Shown here: positions 2,856 through 32,600 of the stretch, one piece after another
Layout of the letters: each line of letters starts with the position of its first letter
Position numbering within the stretch: position 1 is the first letter of the stretch
DNA from: a plasmid
Reading direction: 5' to 3' (one strand)
Assembly: GCF_053078305.1 (NCBI RefSeq)
Contig: NZ_CP166875.1
DNA length: 64,000 nt
Position numbers and translations under genes: made by a program
Notes under the pieces: generated by a model
Databases searched by the model: none
The model's input: the letters and a program-made list of their open reading frames with translations, nothing else
What the model was told of the DNA's origin: nothing

Positions 2856-3367
2856 AACAGATTTCTTTATTTATTCCGCTGCTGGGGACGTTATTACTTT
2901 CCGGCTGTGCCGGAACAAACTCCGACTTTGAGTGTGATGCCACCACATCCGATACCTGTATGACGATGGAGCAGGCCAATGAGAAGGCCAAAAAACTGGA
3001 GCAGTCCTCAGAAGCAAAGCCGGTTGCGGCATCACTGCAGCGCCTGGCTGAAGGGAACTTCCGGACAATGCCGGTGCAGACCGTCACCGCGACCTCTCCG
3101 TCCGGCAGCAGACCTGCGGTGACGGCACTTCCGGAGCAGAAACTGCTGGCACCACGTCCGCTGTTTACCGCTGCCCGGGAAGTGAAAACGGTTGTTCCGG
3201 TCAGTTCAGTTGCACCGGTAATACCTCCCCGTCCGCTAAGAACGGGTGAGCAGACGGCAGCATTATGGATAGCGCCTTATATTGATAATCAGGATGTTTA
3301 TCATCAGCCATCCAGTGTGTTTTTTGTTATTAAACCGTCTGCGTGGGGAAAACCACGTATTAATTAA
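2852..3367 (+). CDS. traV: TraV outer-membrane lipoprotein of T4SS core
   Basis: 171 aa, lipobox LLLSGCAG, F gene order. Confidence 0.85.
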   Translation: MKQISLFIPLLGTLLLSGCAGTNSDFECDATTSDTCMTMEQANEKAKKLEQSSEAKPVAASLQRLAEGNFRTMPVQTVTATSPSGSRPAVTALPEQKLLAPRPLFTAAREVKTVVPVSSVAPVIPPRPLRTGEQTAALWIAPYIDNQDVYHQPSSVFFVIKPSAWGKPRIN

Positions 3368-3501
3368 CAGGCCCTGAAGTTGTATATCAGCCGGCAATGC
3401 CGGCGGGCTTTCTGTATTCAAAATCTGCCTGTAAAACGAGTGCCCTGTGCGTGAAAAGGGATGGGCGGTAGCGTGTCAGAACATGTCGGGAGGAATATTC
3501 C

Positions 3502-3723
3502 GTGAGTGATGAAGCCGATGAAGCATATTCAGTAACAGAACAACTGACCATGACAGGAATAAACCGGATACGCCAGAAAATAAATGTTCATGGTATTCCT
3601 GTTTATCTCTGTGAAGCATGCGGAAATCCTATTCCGGAAGCCCGGCGGAAAATATTTCCCGGTGTGACGTTGTGCGTTGAATGTCAGGCGTATCAGGAAA
3701 GGCAGAGGAAACACTATGCATAA
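3502..3723 (+). CDS. traR: TraR, DksA-like C4 zinc-finger protein
   Basis: 73 aa, CEACGNPIP...CVEC zinc-finger motif. Confidence 0.85.
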   Translation: MSDEADEAYSVTEQLTMTGINRIRQKINVHGIPVYLCEACGNPIPEARRKIFPGVTLCVECQAYQERQRKHYA

Positions 3724-9637: not shown

Positions 9638-10180
9638 ATGCGCAACAGTAAAGTGCAACTTGTATCAATCCTCAGACAGGTCAGTCTTTCACTGAACACG
9701 GAGCCATTACGACAGTTTATCTCTCTGAGGGAGATTGCAGAAGAGACGGATCACGTCGCTGCTCGTTTGTCCGGAGGAAAACGGGTAACACCTGCACAAA
9801 TTTATGAATTGTGTGCACAGTTATGGATGGCCAGGATGAAGGCAGTTGAAGTTTATGGGCGACATTCTGATGTGGTGATGTCTCTGGAAAGACAGACTGA
9901 TTTACTTGAGGCTGCAGGCAACGTATTAAAACAACGCTGGTTTTACCGTCCGTGGGGATCATCAAAAGCATCTGTGATGCTGACAGGTATACTGGTGATC
10001 CCCGTATTTCTGGTTTTATCCGGATTGTTGAGTGCAGGGTATCCCGGGTTATTATGTATTACCGTATCCGGCTGTTATTTTTCCGGGATTGCCGCTTTTT
10101 CTTTGCGGGCTAAAGATCCAGTCGGGCTTTGCTGGTCTGTGTTCTGTTTTATTCTGCTATATCTGCTCCTGAAAAAATGA
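9638..10180 (+). CDS. hypothetical protein, soluble N-terminal domain plus C-terminal TM helices
   Basis: ORF directly after traU stop; not part of canonical F tra set; C-terminal hydrophobic helices. Confidence 0.4.
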   Translation: MRNSKVQLVSILRQVSLSLNTEPLRQFISLREIAEETDHVAARLSGGKRVTPAQIYELCAQLWMARMKAVEVYGRHSDVVMSLERQTDLLEAAGNVLKQRWFYRPWGSSKASVMLTGILVIPVFLVLSGLLSAGYPGLLCITVSGCYFSGIAAFSLRAKDPVGLCWSVFCFILLYLLLKK

Positions 10181-10908
10181 GATTAATTATTCTGCGTCTG
10201 AATAATGAATGCTCCGCCATTGCGATGTACTCTGAATCCATTGGGATGCCTCCTGCAGGAGAACAGTCTGTAGCGGGTTTTTCCCCCATACCTCAGATTC
10301 AGGACAATAGTTTCACAGAGTGGCGTCTTCCTTGCCTTTTCTTTATATAGTATACCTTTTTTTTTCAGGTTATTAGCTATTCTGTTTCGGATTCCGTGGC
10401 GCAGGATGTGAGACTGTAATGTGATCGTGTTATAAGACGGATAGCATAATATGAAATGTTCAATATTTCCGACAAGCTTGTCTGCGTTGATTCTTGAGGA
10501 TACTTTGACAGATGGTCTGGTAATATATTGTGGATGTATATCGATTCTCAGGCTGGATATAAAGGGGGTAAGATAAAGACCCGTAACAGGCGTTCTGAGC
10601 ATGGACGATGAGAAAAAGAACAGAAAAAACCATAGTGTAATTACAGATATCCCTGACCTGATAATTACAGAGTATATGTTTCCGCTGAAAGGTGAATAAT
10701 CTTTTTGTATCATCAGATGTATGATGGATGACAGTAAAAACAAAATAAAGCCAGCCGGGAATGGTCTTCTCAGAACTCTGAAAAAGAGACTGTTATTTAT
10801 GAAGCGAAAACGAAGCAGGACCGTTAACAACAGCGATAAGAATATCAGTATTATGACCATTTGCACTCCGAAACTGATACATGAACAGATGTTTAAGGGT
10901 GATATTAA

Positions 10909-25131: not shown

Positions 25132-27330
25132 ATGAGTTTTAACGCAAAGGATATGACCCAGGGCGGTCAGATTGCGTCCATGCGTATCCGCATGTTCAGC
25201 CAGATCGCCAATATCATGCTTTACTGCCTGTTTATTTTTTTCTGGATCCTCGTTGGTCTGGTTTTATGGGTAAAAATAAGCTGGCAGACGTTTGTGAACG
25301 GCTGTATTTACTGGTGGTGCACCACGCTGGAAGGCATGCGGGATTTAATCAGGTCCCAGCCGGTCTATGAGATCCAGTATTACGGCAAAACCTTCCGGAT
25401 GAACGCGGCTCAGGTACTGCATGATAAATACATGATCTGGTGCGGTGAGCAGCTATGGTCTGCATTCGTTCTGGCGTCTGTCGTGGCCCTGGTTATCTGC
25501 CTGATCACCTTCTTTGTTGTCTCCTGGATTCTGGGGCGTCAGGGTAAACAGCAGAGTGAAAATGAAGTCACAGGTGGTCGTCAGCTGACTGACAATCCGA
25601 AAGAGGTTGCCAGGATGCTGAAAAAAGACGGCAAGGACTCCGATATCCGGATTGGCGATCTGCCGATTATCCGGGATTCTGAAATCCAGAATTTCTGTCT
25701 GCACGGCACGGTCGGGGCCGGTAAGTCGGAAGTTATCCGTCGTCTGGCCAACTACGCCCGTCAGCGCGGTGATATGGTGGTGATTTATGACCGATCAGGG
25801 GAATTTGTTAAAAGTTACTATGACCCGTCCATCGATAATATCCTGAATCCGCTGGATGCCCGCTGTGCCGCCTGGGATTTGTGGAAGGAGTGCCTGACAC
25901 AGCCGGATTTTGATAATACGGCAAATACCCTGATCCCGATGGGCACAAAAGAAGACCCGTTCTGGCAGGGCTCAGGACGCACCATTTTTGCGGAAGCGGC
26001 GTACCTGATGCGTAATGACCCCAACCGCAGCTACAGCAAACTGGTGGATACACTACTCTCCATCAAAATTGAAAAACTGCGTACCTTCCTGCGTAACTCA
26101 CCGGCGGCCAACCTGGTGGAAGAGAAAATCGAGAAAACGGCGATTTCCATCCGTGCTGTGCTGACCAACTACGTGAAAGCCATCCGTTACCTGCAGGGGA
26201 TTGAGCATAATGGTGAGTCCTTCACCATCCGTGACTGGATGCGGGGTGTCCGTGAAGATAAGAAAAACGGCTGGCTGTTTATTTCGTCGAATGCCGACAC
26301 CCATGCTTCCCTGAAACCGGTGATCTCCATGTGGCTGTCCATCGCCATTCGTGGCCTGATGGCGATGGGGGAGAACCGTAACCGTCGTGTGTGGTTCTTC
26401 TGTGATGAGTTACCCACGTTACACAAACTGCCGGACCTGGTGGAGATCCTGCCGGAAGCCCGTAAGTTCGGTGGCTGTTATGTGTTCGGTATCCAGTCCT
26501 ATGCCCAGCTGGAAGATATCTACGGTGAGAAATCGGCAGCCTCGCTGTTTGACGTCATGAACACCCGTGCCTTTTTCCGTTCCCCCAGCCATAAGATTGC
26601 AGAGTTCGCTGCCGGTGAAATTGGTGAGAAAGAGCACCTGAAAGCCAGCGAGCAGTATTCCTACGGTGCTGATCCGGTACGTGACGGGGTATCGACCGGT
26701 AAGGATATGGAGCGCCAGACGCTGGTCAGTTATTCCGACATTCAGTCTCTGCCGGATCTGACCTGTTATGTCACCCTGCCCGGACCGTATCCGGCAGTAA
26801 AACTCTCCCTGAAATATCAGGCACGACCGAAGGTTGCTCCGGAGTTTATTCCGCGTGACATCAATCCTGAAATGGAGAACCGTCTGAGTGCCGTACTTGC
26901 CGCAAGGGAAGCAGAAGGTCGTCAGATGGCCAGCCTCTTCGAACCGGATGTCCCGGAGGTTGTTTCCGGAGAAGACGTGACTCAGGCTGAACAGCCGCAA
27001 CAGCCGCAACAGCCGCAACAGCCGCAACAGCCGCAACAGCCGCAACAGCCGGTGTCTCCTGCCATCAACGATAAGAAGTCAGATGCAGGTGTGAATGTTC
27101 CGGCAGGGGGGATCGAGCAGGAGCTGAAAATGAAACCGGAAGAAGAGATGGAACAGCAACTGCCACCCGGGATCAGTGAATCCGGTGAAGTGGTGGATAT
27201 GGCCGTTTATGAGGCATGGCAACGGGAGCAGAATCCGGATATCCAGCAGCAGATGCAGCGCCGTGAAGAGGTGAATATCAACGTGCACCGGGAGCGCGGG
27301 GAGGATGTTGAGCCGGGAGATGATTTCTGA
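25132..27330 (+). CDS. traD: TraD type IV coupling protein
   Basis: 732 aa, Walker [10 protein letters not shown]-terminal QPQ repeats as in F TraD. Confidence 0.95.
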
Positions 27331-30300
27331 TGTTGAGTTTCAGCGTTGTTAAATCGGCAGGCAGTGCCGGAAACTATTACACCGACAAGGATAATTACTA
27401 TGTGCTGGGTAGCATGGGGGAACGCTGGGCGGGCAAGGGGGCTGAACAGCTTGGGCTGCAGGGCAGTGTTGATAAGGATGTCTTTACCCGTCTTCTGGAG
27501 GGGAAGCTGCCGGACGGGGCGGATTTAAGCCGTATGCAGGATGGCAGTAATAAGCATCGTCCCGGCTATGACCTGACCTTCTCCGCCCCCAAAAGTGTCT
27601 CCATGATGGCCATGTTAGGTGGCGATAAGCGCCTGATTGATGCACATAATCAGGCCGTGGATTTTGCTGTCCGTCAGGTGGAGGCGCTGGCTTCCACACG
27701 GGTGATGACGGACGGACAGTCAGAAACGGTACTGACCGGTAATCTGGTGATGGCACTCTTTAACCACGACACCAGTCGCGATCAGGACCCACAGTTACAC
27801 ACGCATGCGGTGGTGGCTAATGTCACGCAGCATAACGGCGAATGGAAGACACTGAGCAGTGATAAAGTGGGGAAAACCGGTTTTTCCGAGAACGTGCTCG
27901 CGAACCGTATTGCGTTCGGGAAAATATATCAGAGTGAGTTACGTCAGCGCGTTGAGGCGCTGGGCTATGAAACTGAAGTGGTGGGTAAGCACGGTATGTG
28001 GGAGATGCCGGGCGTACCGGTGGAGGCCTTTTCCGGACGCTCACAGGCTATCCGGGAGGCCGTCGGGGAAGACGCCTCGCTGAAATCCCGGGATGTGGCG
28101 GCACTGGATACGCGAAAATCCAAACAGCACGTCGATCCTGAAGTCAGAATGGCTGAATGGATGCAGACGCTGAAGGAAACCGGGTTCGACATCCGGGCGT
28201 ATCGTGACGCGGCAGACCAACGGGCGGAGACCCGCACGCAGACACCCGGACCCGCTTCACAGGACGGGCCGGATGTGCAGCAGGCGGTGACACAGGCCAT
28301 TGCCGGATTAAGTGAACGAAAAGTGCAGTTCACGTACACGGACGTGCTGGCCAGGACGGTCGGCATACTGCCGCCGGAAGCCGGTGTGATTGAGCGGGCG
28401 CGTGCCGGTATCGATGAGGCCATCAGCCGTGAGCAGCTTATCCCCCTCGACCGTGAGAAGGGGCTGTTCACGTCCGGGATTCATGTGCTCGATGAGCTGT
28501 CCGTCCGGGCACTCAGTCGTGACATCATGAAACAGAACCGGGTGACTGTACATCCGGAGAAAAGTGTTCCCCGGACGGCCGGTTACAGCGATGCGGTCAG
28601 TGTTCTGGCACAGGATCGCCCGTCGCTGGCCATTGTGTCCGGGCAGGGCGGTGCAGCCGGGCAGCGTGAGCGGGTGGCTGAACTGGTCATGATGGCCCGG
28701 GAGCAGGGGCGGGAGGTGCAGATTATTGCCGCTGACCGTCGCTCACAGATGAACCTGAAGCAGGATGAACGGCTGTCCGGTGAACTGATAACCGGACGTC
28801 GTCAGCTGCTGGAAGGCATGCCCTTCACGCCGGGCAGTACCGTTATCGTCGACCAGGGCGAAAAACTCTCCCTGAAAGAGACGTTAACCCTGCTGGACGG
28901 TGCCGCACGTCATAACGTACAGGTCCTGATAACCGACAGCGGGCAGCGAACCGGTACAGGCAGTGCGCTGATGGCCATGAAGGATGCCGGGGTGAACATA
29001 TATCGCTGGCAGGGGGGAGAGCAGCGACCGGCAACCATCATCTGTGAACCGGACCGTAATGTCCGCTATGCCCGGCTGGCCGGAGATTTTGCGGCCAGCG
29101 TGAAAGCCGGAGAAGAGAGCGTGGCACAGGTCAGCGGAGTACGGGAACAGGCCATACTGACACAGGCCATTCGCAGTGAACTGAAAACGCAGGGCGTACT
29201 CGGGCAGAGGGAGGTGACCATGACGGTGCTGTCACCGGTCTGGCTGGACAGCCGGAGTCGTTATCTGCGGGATATGTACCGCCCGGGGATGGTGATGGAG
29301 CAGTGGAACCCGGAGACACGCAGTCATGACCGCTATGTTATCGACCGGGTGACAGCGCAGAGTCACAGCCTGACCCTGCGGGATGCGCAGGGCGAAACGC
29401 AGGTGGTGCGTATATCCTCCCTGGACAGCAGCTGGTCGTTGTTCCGGCCGGAAAAAATACCGGTGGCAGACGGCGAGCGTCTGAGGGTGACAGGGAAAAT
29501 TCCCGGACTCCGCGTCTCCGGCGGTGACCGCCTGCAGGTGGCATCCGTCAGTGAAGATGCGATGACGGTTGTTGTGCCGGGGCGGGCTGAACCGGCCACC
29601 CTGCCTGTGAGCGATTCACCGTTCACGGCACTGAAGCTGGAGAGCGGCTGGGTGGAAACGCCCGGGCATTCCGTCAGTGACAGTGCGAAGGTTTTTGCCT
29701 CCGTCACACAGATGGCAATGGACAACGCCACCCTGAACGGTCTGGCCCGCAGCGGTCGTGATGTCCGGCTGTATTCCTCACTGGATGAAACCCGTACTGC
29801 GGAAAAACTTGCCCGTCACCCCTCCTTTACGGTGGTTTCTGAGCAGATAAAGGCGCGTGCCGGTGAGACATTGCTGGAAACCGCTATCAGTCTGCAGAAA
29901 GCCGGGCTTCACACGCCGGCACAGCAGGCCATTCATCTGGCCCTTCCTGTGCTGGAAAGTAAAAACCTGGCCTTCAGCATGGTGGACCTGCTGACAGAGG
30001 CGAAGTCGTTTGCTGCAGAAGGAACCAGTTTTACTGAACTGGGAGGGGAAATCAATGCGCAGATAAAACGCGGTGATTTGCTGTATGTGGATGTGGCAAA
30101 AGGCTATGGCACAGGCCTGCTGGTTTCCCGTGCGTCGTATGAGGCAGAAAAGAGCATTCTTCGCCATATTCTCGAAGGTAAGGAGGCGGTCACGCCGCTG
30201 ATGGAGAGGGTACCCGGCGAACTCATGGAGACACTGACGTCGGGGCAGCGTGCCGCCACCCGCATGATACTGGAAACGTCCGACCGTTTCACGGTGGTGC

Positions 30301-32600
30301 AGGGTTATGCCGGTGTGGGTAAGACCACACAGTTCCGGGCGGTGATGTCAGCCGTGAAGATGCTGCCGGAGAGTGAGCGTCCCCGTGTCGTGGGGCTGGG
30401 CCCCACGCACCGTGCGGTCGGTGAGATGCGCAGCGCCGGCGTGGATGCACAGACACTGGCATCCTTTCTGCATGACACGCAGCTGCAGCAGCGCAGCGGA
30501 GAAACGCCGGATTTCAGCAACACGCTGTTCCTGCTCGATGAGAGCTCTATGGTGGGCAATACCGACATGGCACGGGCATACGCCCTGATTGCGGCCGGTG
30601 GTGGTCGTGCCGTGGCCAGCGGTGACACGGACCAGCTGCAGGCTATCGCGCCCGGTCAGCCTTTCCGTCTCCAGCAGACGCGCAGTGCTGCCGATGTGGT
30701 CATCATGAAGGAGATTGTGCGTCAGACGCCGGAACTGCGGGAGGCGGTATACAGCCTGATTAACCGGGATGTGGAAAGGGCACTGTCCGGGCTTGAGAGT
30801 GTGAAACCGTCTCAGGTGCCACGTCAGGAGGGCGCATGGGCACCGGAGCACTCCGTGACGGAGTTCAGTCACAGCCAGGAAGCGAAACTGGCAGAAGCGC
30901 AGCAGAAGGCGATGCTGAAAGGCGAGGCTTTTCCGGATGTCCCCATGACACTGTATGAAGCCATTGTCCGCGACTATACCGGCAGAACACCGGAAGCACG
31001 GGAGCAGACGCTGATTGTCACGCACCTGAATGAGGACCGGCGCGTACTGAACAGCATGATTCATGATGTACGGGAAAAGGCCGGTGAGCTGGGGAAAGAG
31101 CAGGTCATGGTGCCTGTCCTGAACACAGCGAATATACGTGACGGAGAGCTGCGTCGTCTCTCCACCTGGGAGACACATCGGGACGCACTTGCCCTGGTGG
31201 ATAATGTGTATCACCGGATTGCCGGTATCAGTAAGGATGACGGGCTGATAACCCTGGAGGATGCGGAAGGTAACACGCGGCTGATTTCGCCCCGGGAGGC
31301 GGTGGCTGAAGGTGTCACACTGTACACCCCGGACACCATCCGGGTGGGGACCGGTGACCGGATGCGCTTCACGAAGAGTGACCGGGAGCGCGGCTATGTG
31401 GCCAACAGCGTCTGGACGGTGATGGCGGTTTCCGGTGACAGTGTCACGCTTTCTGACGGACAGCAGACCCGGGTGATTCGCCCCGGCCAGGAGCAGGCAG
31501 AGCAACATATTGACCTGGCCTATGCCATCACCGCTCACGGTGCGCAGGGGGCGAGTGAAACCTTTGCCATCGCGCTTGAAGGCACGGAAGGTAACCGGAA
31601 ACAGATGGCCGGCTTTGAGTCAGCCTATGTGGCCCTGTCGCGTATGAAGCAGCATGTGCAGGTGTACACCGATAACCGTCAGGGCTGGACGGATGCCATC
31701 AGCAAAGCCGTACAGAAAGGAACGGCCCATGATGTGCTGGAGCCGGGGGCTGACCGGGAGGTCATGAATGCAGAGCGGTTGTTCAGTACGGCACGGGAGC
31801 TGCGGGATGTGGCAGCTGGCCGTGCTGTTCTCCGCCAGGCGGGACTGGCCGGGGGCGACAGTCCGGCACGGTTTATTGCACCGGGGCGCAAATATCCGCA
31901 GCCGTATGTGGCCCTGCCGGCTTTTGACCGTAACGGCAAGTCCGCCGGTATCTGGCTGAACCCACTGACCACGGATGACGGAAACGGGCTGCGGGGATTC
32001 AGTGGTGAAGGCCGGGTGAAAGGCAGCGGGGATGCGCAGTTTGTGGCCCTGCAGGGCAGCCGTAACGGCGAGAGCCTGCTGGCTGATAATATGCAGGATG
32101 GTGTCTGGATTGCCCGTGATAACCCCGACAGCGGTGTGGTGGTGAGAATCGCCGGTGAAGGTCGTCCGTGGAATCCCGGTGCCATCACCGGTGGCCGCGT
32201 GTGGGGGGATATCCCGGACAACAGCGTCCAGCCGGGGGCCGGAAACGGTGAGCCGGTCACGGCAGAGGTGCTGGCACAGCGGCAGGCTGAAGAGGACATC
32301 CGTCGTGAAACGGAACGCCGTGCGGATGAGATTGTCAGAAAAATGGCAGAGGAAAAACCTGACCAGCCGGATGGTAAAACAGAGCAGGCTGTCAGGGCTA
32401 TTGCCGGGCAGGAGCAGGACAGGGCTTCGTCATCAGAACGGGAAACTGCGCTGCCGGAAAGTGTGCTGCGTGAGTCTCAACGGGTGCAGGACGCTGTCCG
32501 GGAGGTTGCCCGGGAAAATCTGCTGCAGGAGCGACTTCAGCAGATGGAGCGGGATATGGTCCGTGACCTGCAGAAAGAGAAAACCCTGGGCGGAGACTGA
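27330..32600 (+). CDS. traI: TraI relaxase/helicase
   Basis: 1756 aa (F TraI is 1756 aa); N-terminal relaxase with HTH motif region, helicase Walker A GYAGVGKT. Confidence 0.95.
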   Translation: MLSFSVVKSAGSAGNYYTDKDNYYVLGSMGERWAGKGAEQLGLQGSVDKDVFTRLLEGKLPDGADLSRMQDGSNKHRPGYDLTFSAPKSVSMMAMLGGDKRLIDAHNQAVDFAVRQVEALASTRVMTDGQSETVLTGNLVMALFNHDTSRDQDPQLHTHAVVANVTQHNGEWKTLSSDKVGKTGFSENVLANRIAFGKIYQSELRQRVEALGYETEVVGKHGMWEMPGVPVEAFSGRSQAIREAVGEDASLKSRDVAALDTRKSKQHVDPEVRMAEWMQTLKETGFDIRAYRDAADQRAETRTQTPGPASQDGPDVQQAVTQAIAGLSERKVQFTYTDVLARTVGILPPEAGVIERARAGIDEAISREQLIPLDREKGLFTSGIHVLDELSVRALSRDIMKQNRVTVHPEKSVPRTAGYSDAVSVLAQDRPSLAIVSGQGGAAGQRERVAELVMMAREQGREVQIIAADRRSQMNLKQDERLSGELITGRRQLLEGMPFTPGSTVIVDQGEKLSLKETLTLLDGAARHNVQVLITDSGQRTGTGSALMAMKDAGVNIYRWQGGEQRPATIICEPDRNVRYARLAGDFAASVKAGEESVAQVSGVREQAILTQAIRSELKTQGVLGQREVTMTVLSPVWLDSRSRYLRDMYRPGMVMEQWNPETRSHDRYVIDRVTAQSHSLTLRDAQGETQVVRISSLDSSWSLFRPEKIPVADGERLRVTGKIPGLRVSGGDRLQVASVSEDAMTVVVPGRAEPATLPVSDSPFTALKLESGWVETPGHSVSDSAKVFASVTQMAMDNATLNGLARSGRDVRLYSSLDETRTAEKLARHPSFTVVSEQIKARAGETLLETAISLQKAGLHTPAQQAIHLALPVLESKNLAFSMVDLLTEAKSFAAEGTSFTELGGEINAQIKRGDLLYVDVAKGYGTGLLVSRASYEAEKSILRHILEGKEAVTPLMERVPGELMETLTSGQRAATRMILETSDRFTVVQGYAGVGKTTQFRAVMSAVKMLPESERPRVVGLGPTHRAVGEMRSAGVDAQTLASFLHDTQLQQRSGETPDFSNTLFLLDESSMVGNTDMARAYALIAAGGGRAVASGDTDQLQAIAPGQPFRLQQTRSAADVVIMKEIVRQTPELREAVYSLINRDVERALSGLESVKPSQVPRQEGAWAPEHSVTEFSHSQEAKLAEAQQKAMLKGEAFPDVPMTLYEAIVRDYTGRTPEAREQTLIVTHLNEDRRVLNSMIHDVREKAGELGKEQVMVPVLNTANIRDGELRRLSTWETHRDALALVDNVYHRIAGISKDDGLITLEDAEGNTRLISPREAVAEGVTLYTPDTIRVGTGDRMRFTKSDRERGYVANSVWTVMAVSGDSVTLSDGQQTRVIRPGQEQAEQHIDLAYAITAHGAQGASETFAIALEGTEGNRKQMAGFESAYVALSRMKQHVQVYTDNRQGWTDAISKAVQKGTAHDVLEPGADREVMNAERLFSTARELRDVAAGRAVLRQAGLAGGDSPARFIAPGRKYPQPYVALPAFDRNGKSAGIWLNPLTTDDGNGLRGFSGEGRVKGSGDAQFVALQGSRNGESLLADNMQDGVWIARDNPDSGVVVRIAGEGRPWNPGAITGGRVWGDIPDNSVQPGAGNGEPVTAEVLAQRQAEEDIRRETERRADEIVRKMAEEKPDQPDGKTEQAVRAIAGQEQDRASSSERETALPESVLRESQRVQDAVREVARENLLQERLQQMERDMVRDLQKEKTLGGD

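Follow-up and report, generated by a model that had tools for sequence, protein, structure and literature searches.

A codon-aligned nonamer array in an F-type traD gene corresponds to the known QQP motif and very probably encodes a length-tolerant spacer

A short, perfect tandem repeat lies inside the reading frame of a conjugation gene in a 64,000-nucleotide stretch of plasmid DNA (the whole of which is called the window hereafter), and it raises the question of what this array is, how it changes, and whether its length matters to the protein that carries it. Tandem Repeats Finder delimited a period-9 tract at 26990..27051 on the plus strand (62 nt, 6.9 copies, 100% matches, no indels, score 124), within which an exact-match script placed six complete, codon-aligned CAGCCGCAA units at 26992..27045 (plus strand), followed by CAGCCG at 27046..27051. 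Between 26980 and 27060 the sequence reads ...ACTCAGGCTGAA(CAGCCGCAA)x6 CAGCCG GTGTCT.... The first CAG is codon 621 of the open reading frame 25132..27330 (frame offset 0, as (26992-25132) mod 3 = 0); each unit reads CAG CCG CAA, i.e. Q P Q, and the six QPQ triplets (residues 621-638) with the closing QP (639-640) give the product E620-(QPQ)6-QP-V641, which amounts to 20 of the 732 residues (621-640). Both tools thus substantiate the first-pass annotation in its description of a real array of six in-frame nonamers encoding QPQ. The coordinates given there (26992-27050) were right to within one or two bases, as the end fell one base short of 27051 and the periodicity begins at 26990, two bases before the first unit and within the GAA codon of Glu620. 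The array holds six of the eight CAA codons of traD, and a two-unit pattern with at most one mismatch was matched five times in the window, always within the array, and not once in any of 100 dinucleotide-preserving shuffles.

By the thresholds applied (at least 3 copies, unit periods of 4-30, at least 20 nt), the 64 kb contains just two perfect tandem arrays, of which this is one. The other (CGGACAG x7, period 7, 49 nt, 11381-11429) is situated among short unsupported open reading frames in a variable insert downstream of traU, and runs into the first part of a 128-nt stretch (11416-11543) with matches to the traU 3' end in thousands of plasmids. In the closest relative, NZ_CP045714.1, the corresponding span is 7 nt shorter, which fits one unit fewer.

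The host gene (traD, 25132..27330, plus strand, 732 aa) encodes an intact F-type type IV coupling protein. Its product scored 1675 bits against NCBIfam NF010254 (cut-off 1221) over residues 1-732 and 830 bits against TIGR02759 (cut-off 521), with the TraD_N membrane region (PF12615) at residues 32-128, a TrwB-like nucleotide-binding/DNA-binding domain at residues 172-561 (25645..26814, plus strand; PF10412, E 3.6e-117) and a Walker A motif (GTVGAGKS) starting at residue 192. Directly downstream, the start codon of the traI relaxase/helicase gene (27330..32600, plus strand, 1756 aa; NF010263, 3299 bits) shares 1 nt with the stop codon of traD. On sequence grounds, the full-length models, the domain content, the tail sequence and the gene context all agree that this is the F-type TraD of MPF-F/MOB-F conjugation systems, and the assignment made at first reading is upheld by curated models scoring above their cut-offs.

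The surroundings of traD differ between plasmids. In F128 (L026, NZ_CP014273.1) an antisense vapBC toxin-antitoxin cassette (3069-3694) separates traD from traI, and in two further loci (L015 and L022, for which 100 nt of flank were read) an antisense vapC starts 8 nt past the traD stop; many match-table rows that name traD alone probably reflect this vapBC-type variant. Within traD itself, a G6 homopolymer is found at window positions 27106-27111, 55 nt downstream of the array. In NZ_CP102948.1 (L024) it is reduced to G5 (541-545), and the gene is annotated as frameshifted, its product ending in ...VPAGGSSRS and a stop, so that ~80 C-terminal residues are lost and the TraM-binding tail with them. 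The same type of ending is shared by the database proteins P0026 and P0052, and G6 is intact in all 24 other loci.

That the array is a recognised feature of F-type TraD, as had been proposed from the letters of the window, is confirmed by the literature: a "QQP motif" has been described as a variable region of F-like TraD, 5 residues long in F and 23 residues long in R1 (Lang et al. 2011, Mol Microbiol 82:1071, PMC3245843). The array is this published, already known motif. It shares with the QQP motif of F, R1, R100/NR1 and other plasmids the gene, the site (within the C-terminal extension, past the nucleotide-binding domain and ahead of the TraM-interaction region), the Q-Q-P periodicity and the length heterogeneity between related plasmids, and F128 TraD has identical flanks (...EDVTQAE, array, VSPAINDKK...). 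Only length sets the window apart (20 residues, where F has 5 and R1 has 23), its array being an intermediate allele of the QQP feature, and the range met in our sample extends past both published values, up to 62 residues in pBL12EC-3.

The region that holds the array, the C-terminal extension (residues 574-732; 26851..27327, plus strand), is acidic, low in hydropathy and without a solved homologue. The only solved homologues of TraD are the structures of TrwB from R388 (PDB 1E9R/1GL6), whose ATPase/DNA-binding core aligns with residues 160-573 (E 1.3e-46); neither the extension nor the Gln-Pro array has a counterpart in TrwB, and the search of PDB returned no match past residue 573. The mean hydropathy of the extension (0.372) falls below the charge-hydropathy boundary (0.458), i.e. 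on the disordered side, whereas the value for the ATPase domain exceeds the boundary that applies to it, and the extension has been described as unstructured (Lang et al. 2011, PMC3245843). Residues 551-732 were modelled with AlphaFold (mean pLDDT 60); as the alignment behind the model had only 11 sequences, a low pLDDT in it speaks weakly for disorder. The model predicts, ahead of the array, a helix (residues 579-603, model positions 29-53; 26866..26940, plus strand; block pLDDT up to 92), a low-confidence coil around the array itself (residues 610-673; 26959..27150, plus strand; pLDDT <50 except at residue 664) and a helical pair downstream (residues 690-717, model positions 140-150 and 152-167; 27199..27282, plus strand; pLDDT about 88), the last lying in a conserved block of the homologue alignment with a nearly invariant 12-residue stretch. 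In the same alignment, which reaches homologues down to 44% identity, the array is the least conserved position of the extension, flanked by conserved blocks (...LFEPD before; GG.EQEL... to ...EPGDDF after), and distant homologues carry at its place a non-repetitive Pro/Ala/Val-rich filler of variable length.

The first-pass annotation had called the array the tail of TraD, and this part of the description is a misnomer: 92 residues follow it, and the tail proper is formed by the last ~8 (...EPGDDF). This C-terminal tail (DVEPGDDF; 27304..27327, plus strand) has an ending identical to that of F128 TraD (L010). A groove in the TraM tetramerisation domain takes up the last ~8 residues of TraD, which set plasmid specificity; one tail on its own binds weakly, and both avidity and the flexibility of the TraD C-terminus are thought to strengthen the binding (Wong et al. 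2011, PMC3159463). As modelled, the array is a mid-extension linker between two predicted helical segments, and not a tail.

In order to follow the array across plasmids, we used the 631 nt at 26700-27330 as a query, which matched 3,983 plasmid records of PLSDB and, among 5,426 complete E. coli genomes, 3,213 records from 2,803 of them. From these, 115 complete records (57 plasmid, 58 E. coli) were sampled at even steps down the ranking. The expectation that copy number varies between plasmids held: spans differed from 631 by exact multiples of 9 in 113 of the 115 (57/57 plasmid, 56/58 E. coli), with differences of -54 to +126 nt (-6 to +14 units), and the span of the window was found in 13 of them. 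The two exceptions are frameshift-annotated records in which the indels lie outside the array (the G6-to-G5 change in L024, several in L025). Arrays were then read directly in 20 loci fetched across the length range and spanned 1 to 20 units, or 5 to 62 residues. A single unit was present in F128 (L010, QPQQP, as published for F) and in L011, two in L020, three in L019, four in L018, five in L017, six in L021 (AP026744.1) and L025, seven in L016 and L023, eight in L015, nine in L014, eleven in L013 and L024, thirteen in L001 (CP027641.1), L012 and L008, fourteen in L022, seventeen in L009 and twenty in L007 (pBL12EC-3, 62 residues). Every array that was directly read is internally pure, and the units come as two synonymous alleles, CAGCCGCAA (with CCG, the window type) and CAGCCACAA (with CCA), which are never mixed within one array, the terminal partial unit excepted.

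The lineage with CAGCCACAA units (seen in L009, L011, L012, L023, L024 and L002-L006) also has a left flank that is 9 nt (3 residues) shorter and reads EPEVASGEDV. A higher-order duplication was recorded in L008 (NZ_CP124503.1 pAVS0970-A, 340-560), where left flank and array are repeated as a block, the first copy being (QPQ)13-Q; the corresponding 730-nt span occurs in 3 of the 57 sampled plasmids.

Differences in length are also found between close relatives. Plasmid CP027641.1 has flanks 100% identical to those of the window and 99.94% identity over 9.3 kb upstream, yet it carries 13 units, and among the 30 plasmids with the closest flanks (at least 98.6% identity) the inferred counts were 3, 6, 7, 9, 10, 11, 13 and 14. 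Neither the plasmid collection nor that of E. coli contains a record that combines identical flanks with six units. As judged from these comparisons, the array appears to change faster than point substitutions accumulate. It is nevertheless not unstable on short timescales, because the span is the same in all of four identical 90,645-bp plasmids that come from one farm study. Two further features of CP027641.1 (L001) were recorded: about 1.26 kb (9737-11000), absent from the window at ~17700, may be an insertion sequence, and its traI has only 98.7% identity to that of the window, where the sequence upstream reaches 99.8-99.9%, a drop indicative of a mosaic junction in or close to the array.

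Slippage and unequal recombination are processes that yield perfect units, whole-unit changes, purity within lineages and no dependence on the divergence of the flanks. The array has this very pattern, with perfect units, whole-unit changes, concerted purity per lineage and lengths that do not depend on flank divergence; its head-to-tail identical units, altered only as wholes and homogeneous within a lineage, are those of a coding minisatellite (VNTR). We consider that replication slippage is most probably the mechanism, in that slipped-strand misalignment between identical units during replication would produce gains and losses of whole 9-nt units, with unequal recombination between identical units as a possible second route. 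Since 9 is a multiple of 3 and the units are codon-aligned, no such change of length ever breaks the reading frame. The phase-variable simple sequence repeats of Neisseria and Haemophilus (contingency loci) are likewise perfect, slippage-prone tandem repeats, but the 9-nt codon-aligned unit of traD never turns the gene off, the outcome being a length polymorphism and no on/off switch. A role as a contingency locus or frameshift switch was accordingly discarded, as the units are codon-aligned, the intact sampled alleles are all in frame and there is no promoter signal within the array. Hairpin-driven expansion was rejected as well, given that with DNA folding parameters neither strand surpassed its shuffles (z +0.97, -0.16); the bottom-strand fold of -37 kcal/mol obtained with RNA parameters owes its apparent strength to the counting of G-U pairs.

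Taken as a protein element, the array is very probably the known QQP coding minisatellite acting as a slippage-prone, length-tolerant flexible spacer in the disordered extension of TraD. It would serve as a flexible spacer or tether that joins the TrwB-like ATPase domain to the TraM-engaging C-terminal segments, and is most likely not a specific binding site, given that 5 to 62 residues are tolerated. The points that favour a spacer are the variability of the site among homologues, the low structural confidence, and the occurrence of all these lengths in plasmids typed as conjugative; moreover, a long array is not required, because F, the reference conjugative plasmid, has only QPQQP. Array length thus seems to be nearly neutral. 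Proline-rich spacers in proteins that span the envelope, for instance the (Glu-Pro)n/(Lys-Pro)n region of TonB, may offer an analogy, as likewise low-complexity, proline-containing extended linkers between modules whose length is largely tolerated; the TonB spacer belongs to another protein and cell compartment, differs in composition, and is not known to have a perfect tandem array as its coding DNA or to vary notably in copy number.

The alternative that survives best, and that we nonetheless hold to be unlikely, is that array length is functionally tuned, so that it would decide how far the six TraD C-termini reach towards the TraM tetramers on oriT, or with what avidity they bind them, or modulate ATPase regulation, mobilisation specificity or sensitivity to the RNA phage R17, with lengths selected per plasmid or host. 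The literature lends it some ground: variation in the TraD C-terminus was raised as a possible basis of plasmid-specific differences between F and R1, with phage resistance suggested to drive the diversification of type IV coupling proteins (Lang et al. 2011, PMC3245843), and TraM-TraD binding was argued to need avidity and a flexible TraD C-terminus (Wong et al. 2011, PMC3159463). Wide length variation even on near-identical backbones could be read in the same direction. However, arrays of 5 to 62 residues are all found in plasmids typed as conjugative, the 115 sampled spans form a broad distribution with no obvious optimum, and distant homologues have unrelated filler at this position. The stronger proposal, that the QQP array is a fast-evolving tuning element whose tether length adjusts the reach of TraD C-termini to TraM tetramers on oriT, is in our estimation quite improbable, and the length-tolerant spacer is kept as the preferred reading.

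A different objection concerns the count of six itself, which might be an assembly artefact, the array having been collapsed or wrongly resolved. Contigs from short reads do break off within it: an NCBI contig of 325 nt ends after two units, and four Logan contigs of 15.2 kb start with 29 nt of repeat, possibly on account of a small assembly k-mer. Among the proteins similar to the C-terminal 182 residues, several large clusters with "partial" TraD are bounded by the array in the same manner, as P0016 (304 members) starts with QQPQQPQQP, P0043 (61 members) ends in ...AEQPQQPQ, and P0042 and P0047 end in ...EDVTQA, directly before it. The 13 units of CP027641.1, a plasmid with identical flanks, could be read in favour of an artefact as well. 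Against this, the 62-nt tract is perfectly in frame and shorter than normal Illumina reads, the span of the window is common to 13 of the 115 sampled complete records, of which AP026744.1 (L021), with flanks 99.4% identical, and L025 both have six units by direct reading, and a collapsed array is not expected to settle on a particular value. We therefore regard an artefactual count as very improbable and the assembly risk for the 62-nt copy of the window as modest. The warning that the array would mis-assemble easily stands in so far as short-read contigs break inside it, and has to be narrowed in that the risk attaches mostly to longer arrays or small k.

It is scarcely credible that the repeat acts at the level of DNA or RNA or through the opposite strand (as a protein-binding array, an internal traI promoter, a hairpin or an antisense open reading frame), for while an antisense frame of 208 aa (26419..27045, minus strand) does start inside the array, its start is the repeat read backwards (MRLLRLL...), neither DNA strand folds better than shuffles, and F works with about one unit. 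As a gene, this antisense frame was dismissed as a by-product of the repeat without a family match (no Pfam match at E up to 1). The array contained no promoter-like or terminator-like sites, and the numbers of such sites around it were not above shuffled expectation.

As a polymorphic spacer already on record in a thoroughly studied protein, the repeat carries little biological weight. Its practical bearing is on how F-like plasmids are assembled, annotated and followed. The array is a site where short-read IncF plasmid assemblies fragment, and since the length of traD differs between otherwise identical backbones, differences in TraD length should not be annotated as truncations. The number of units, together with the CCG/CCA unit allele, could provide a cheap, high-resolution marker for tracking F-like plasmids. 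Were the length of the array to be tuned after all, the efficiency or specificity of transfer, or else the susceptibility to RNA phages of the F pilus, would be tuned with it, which would give these plasmids a heritable and reversible means of adjusting conjugation.
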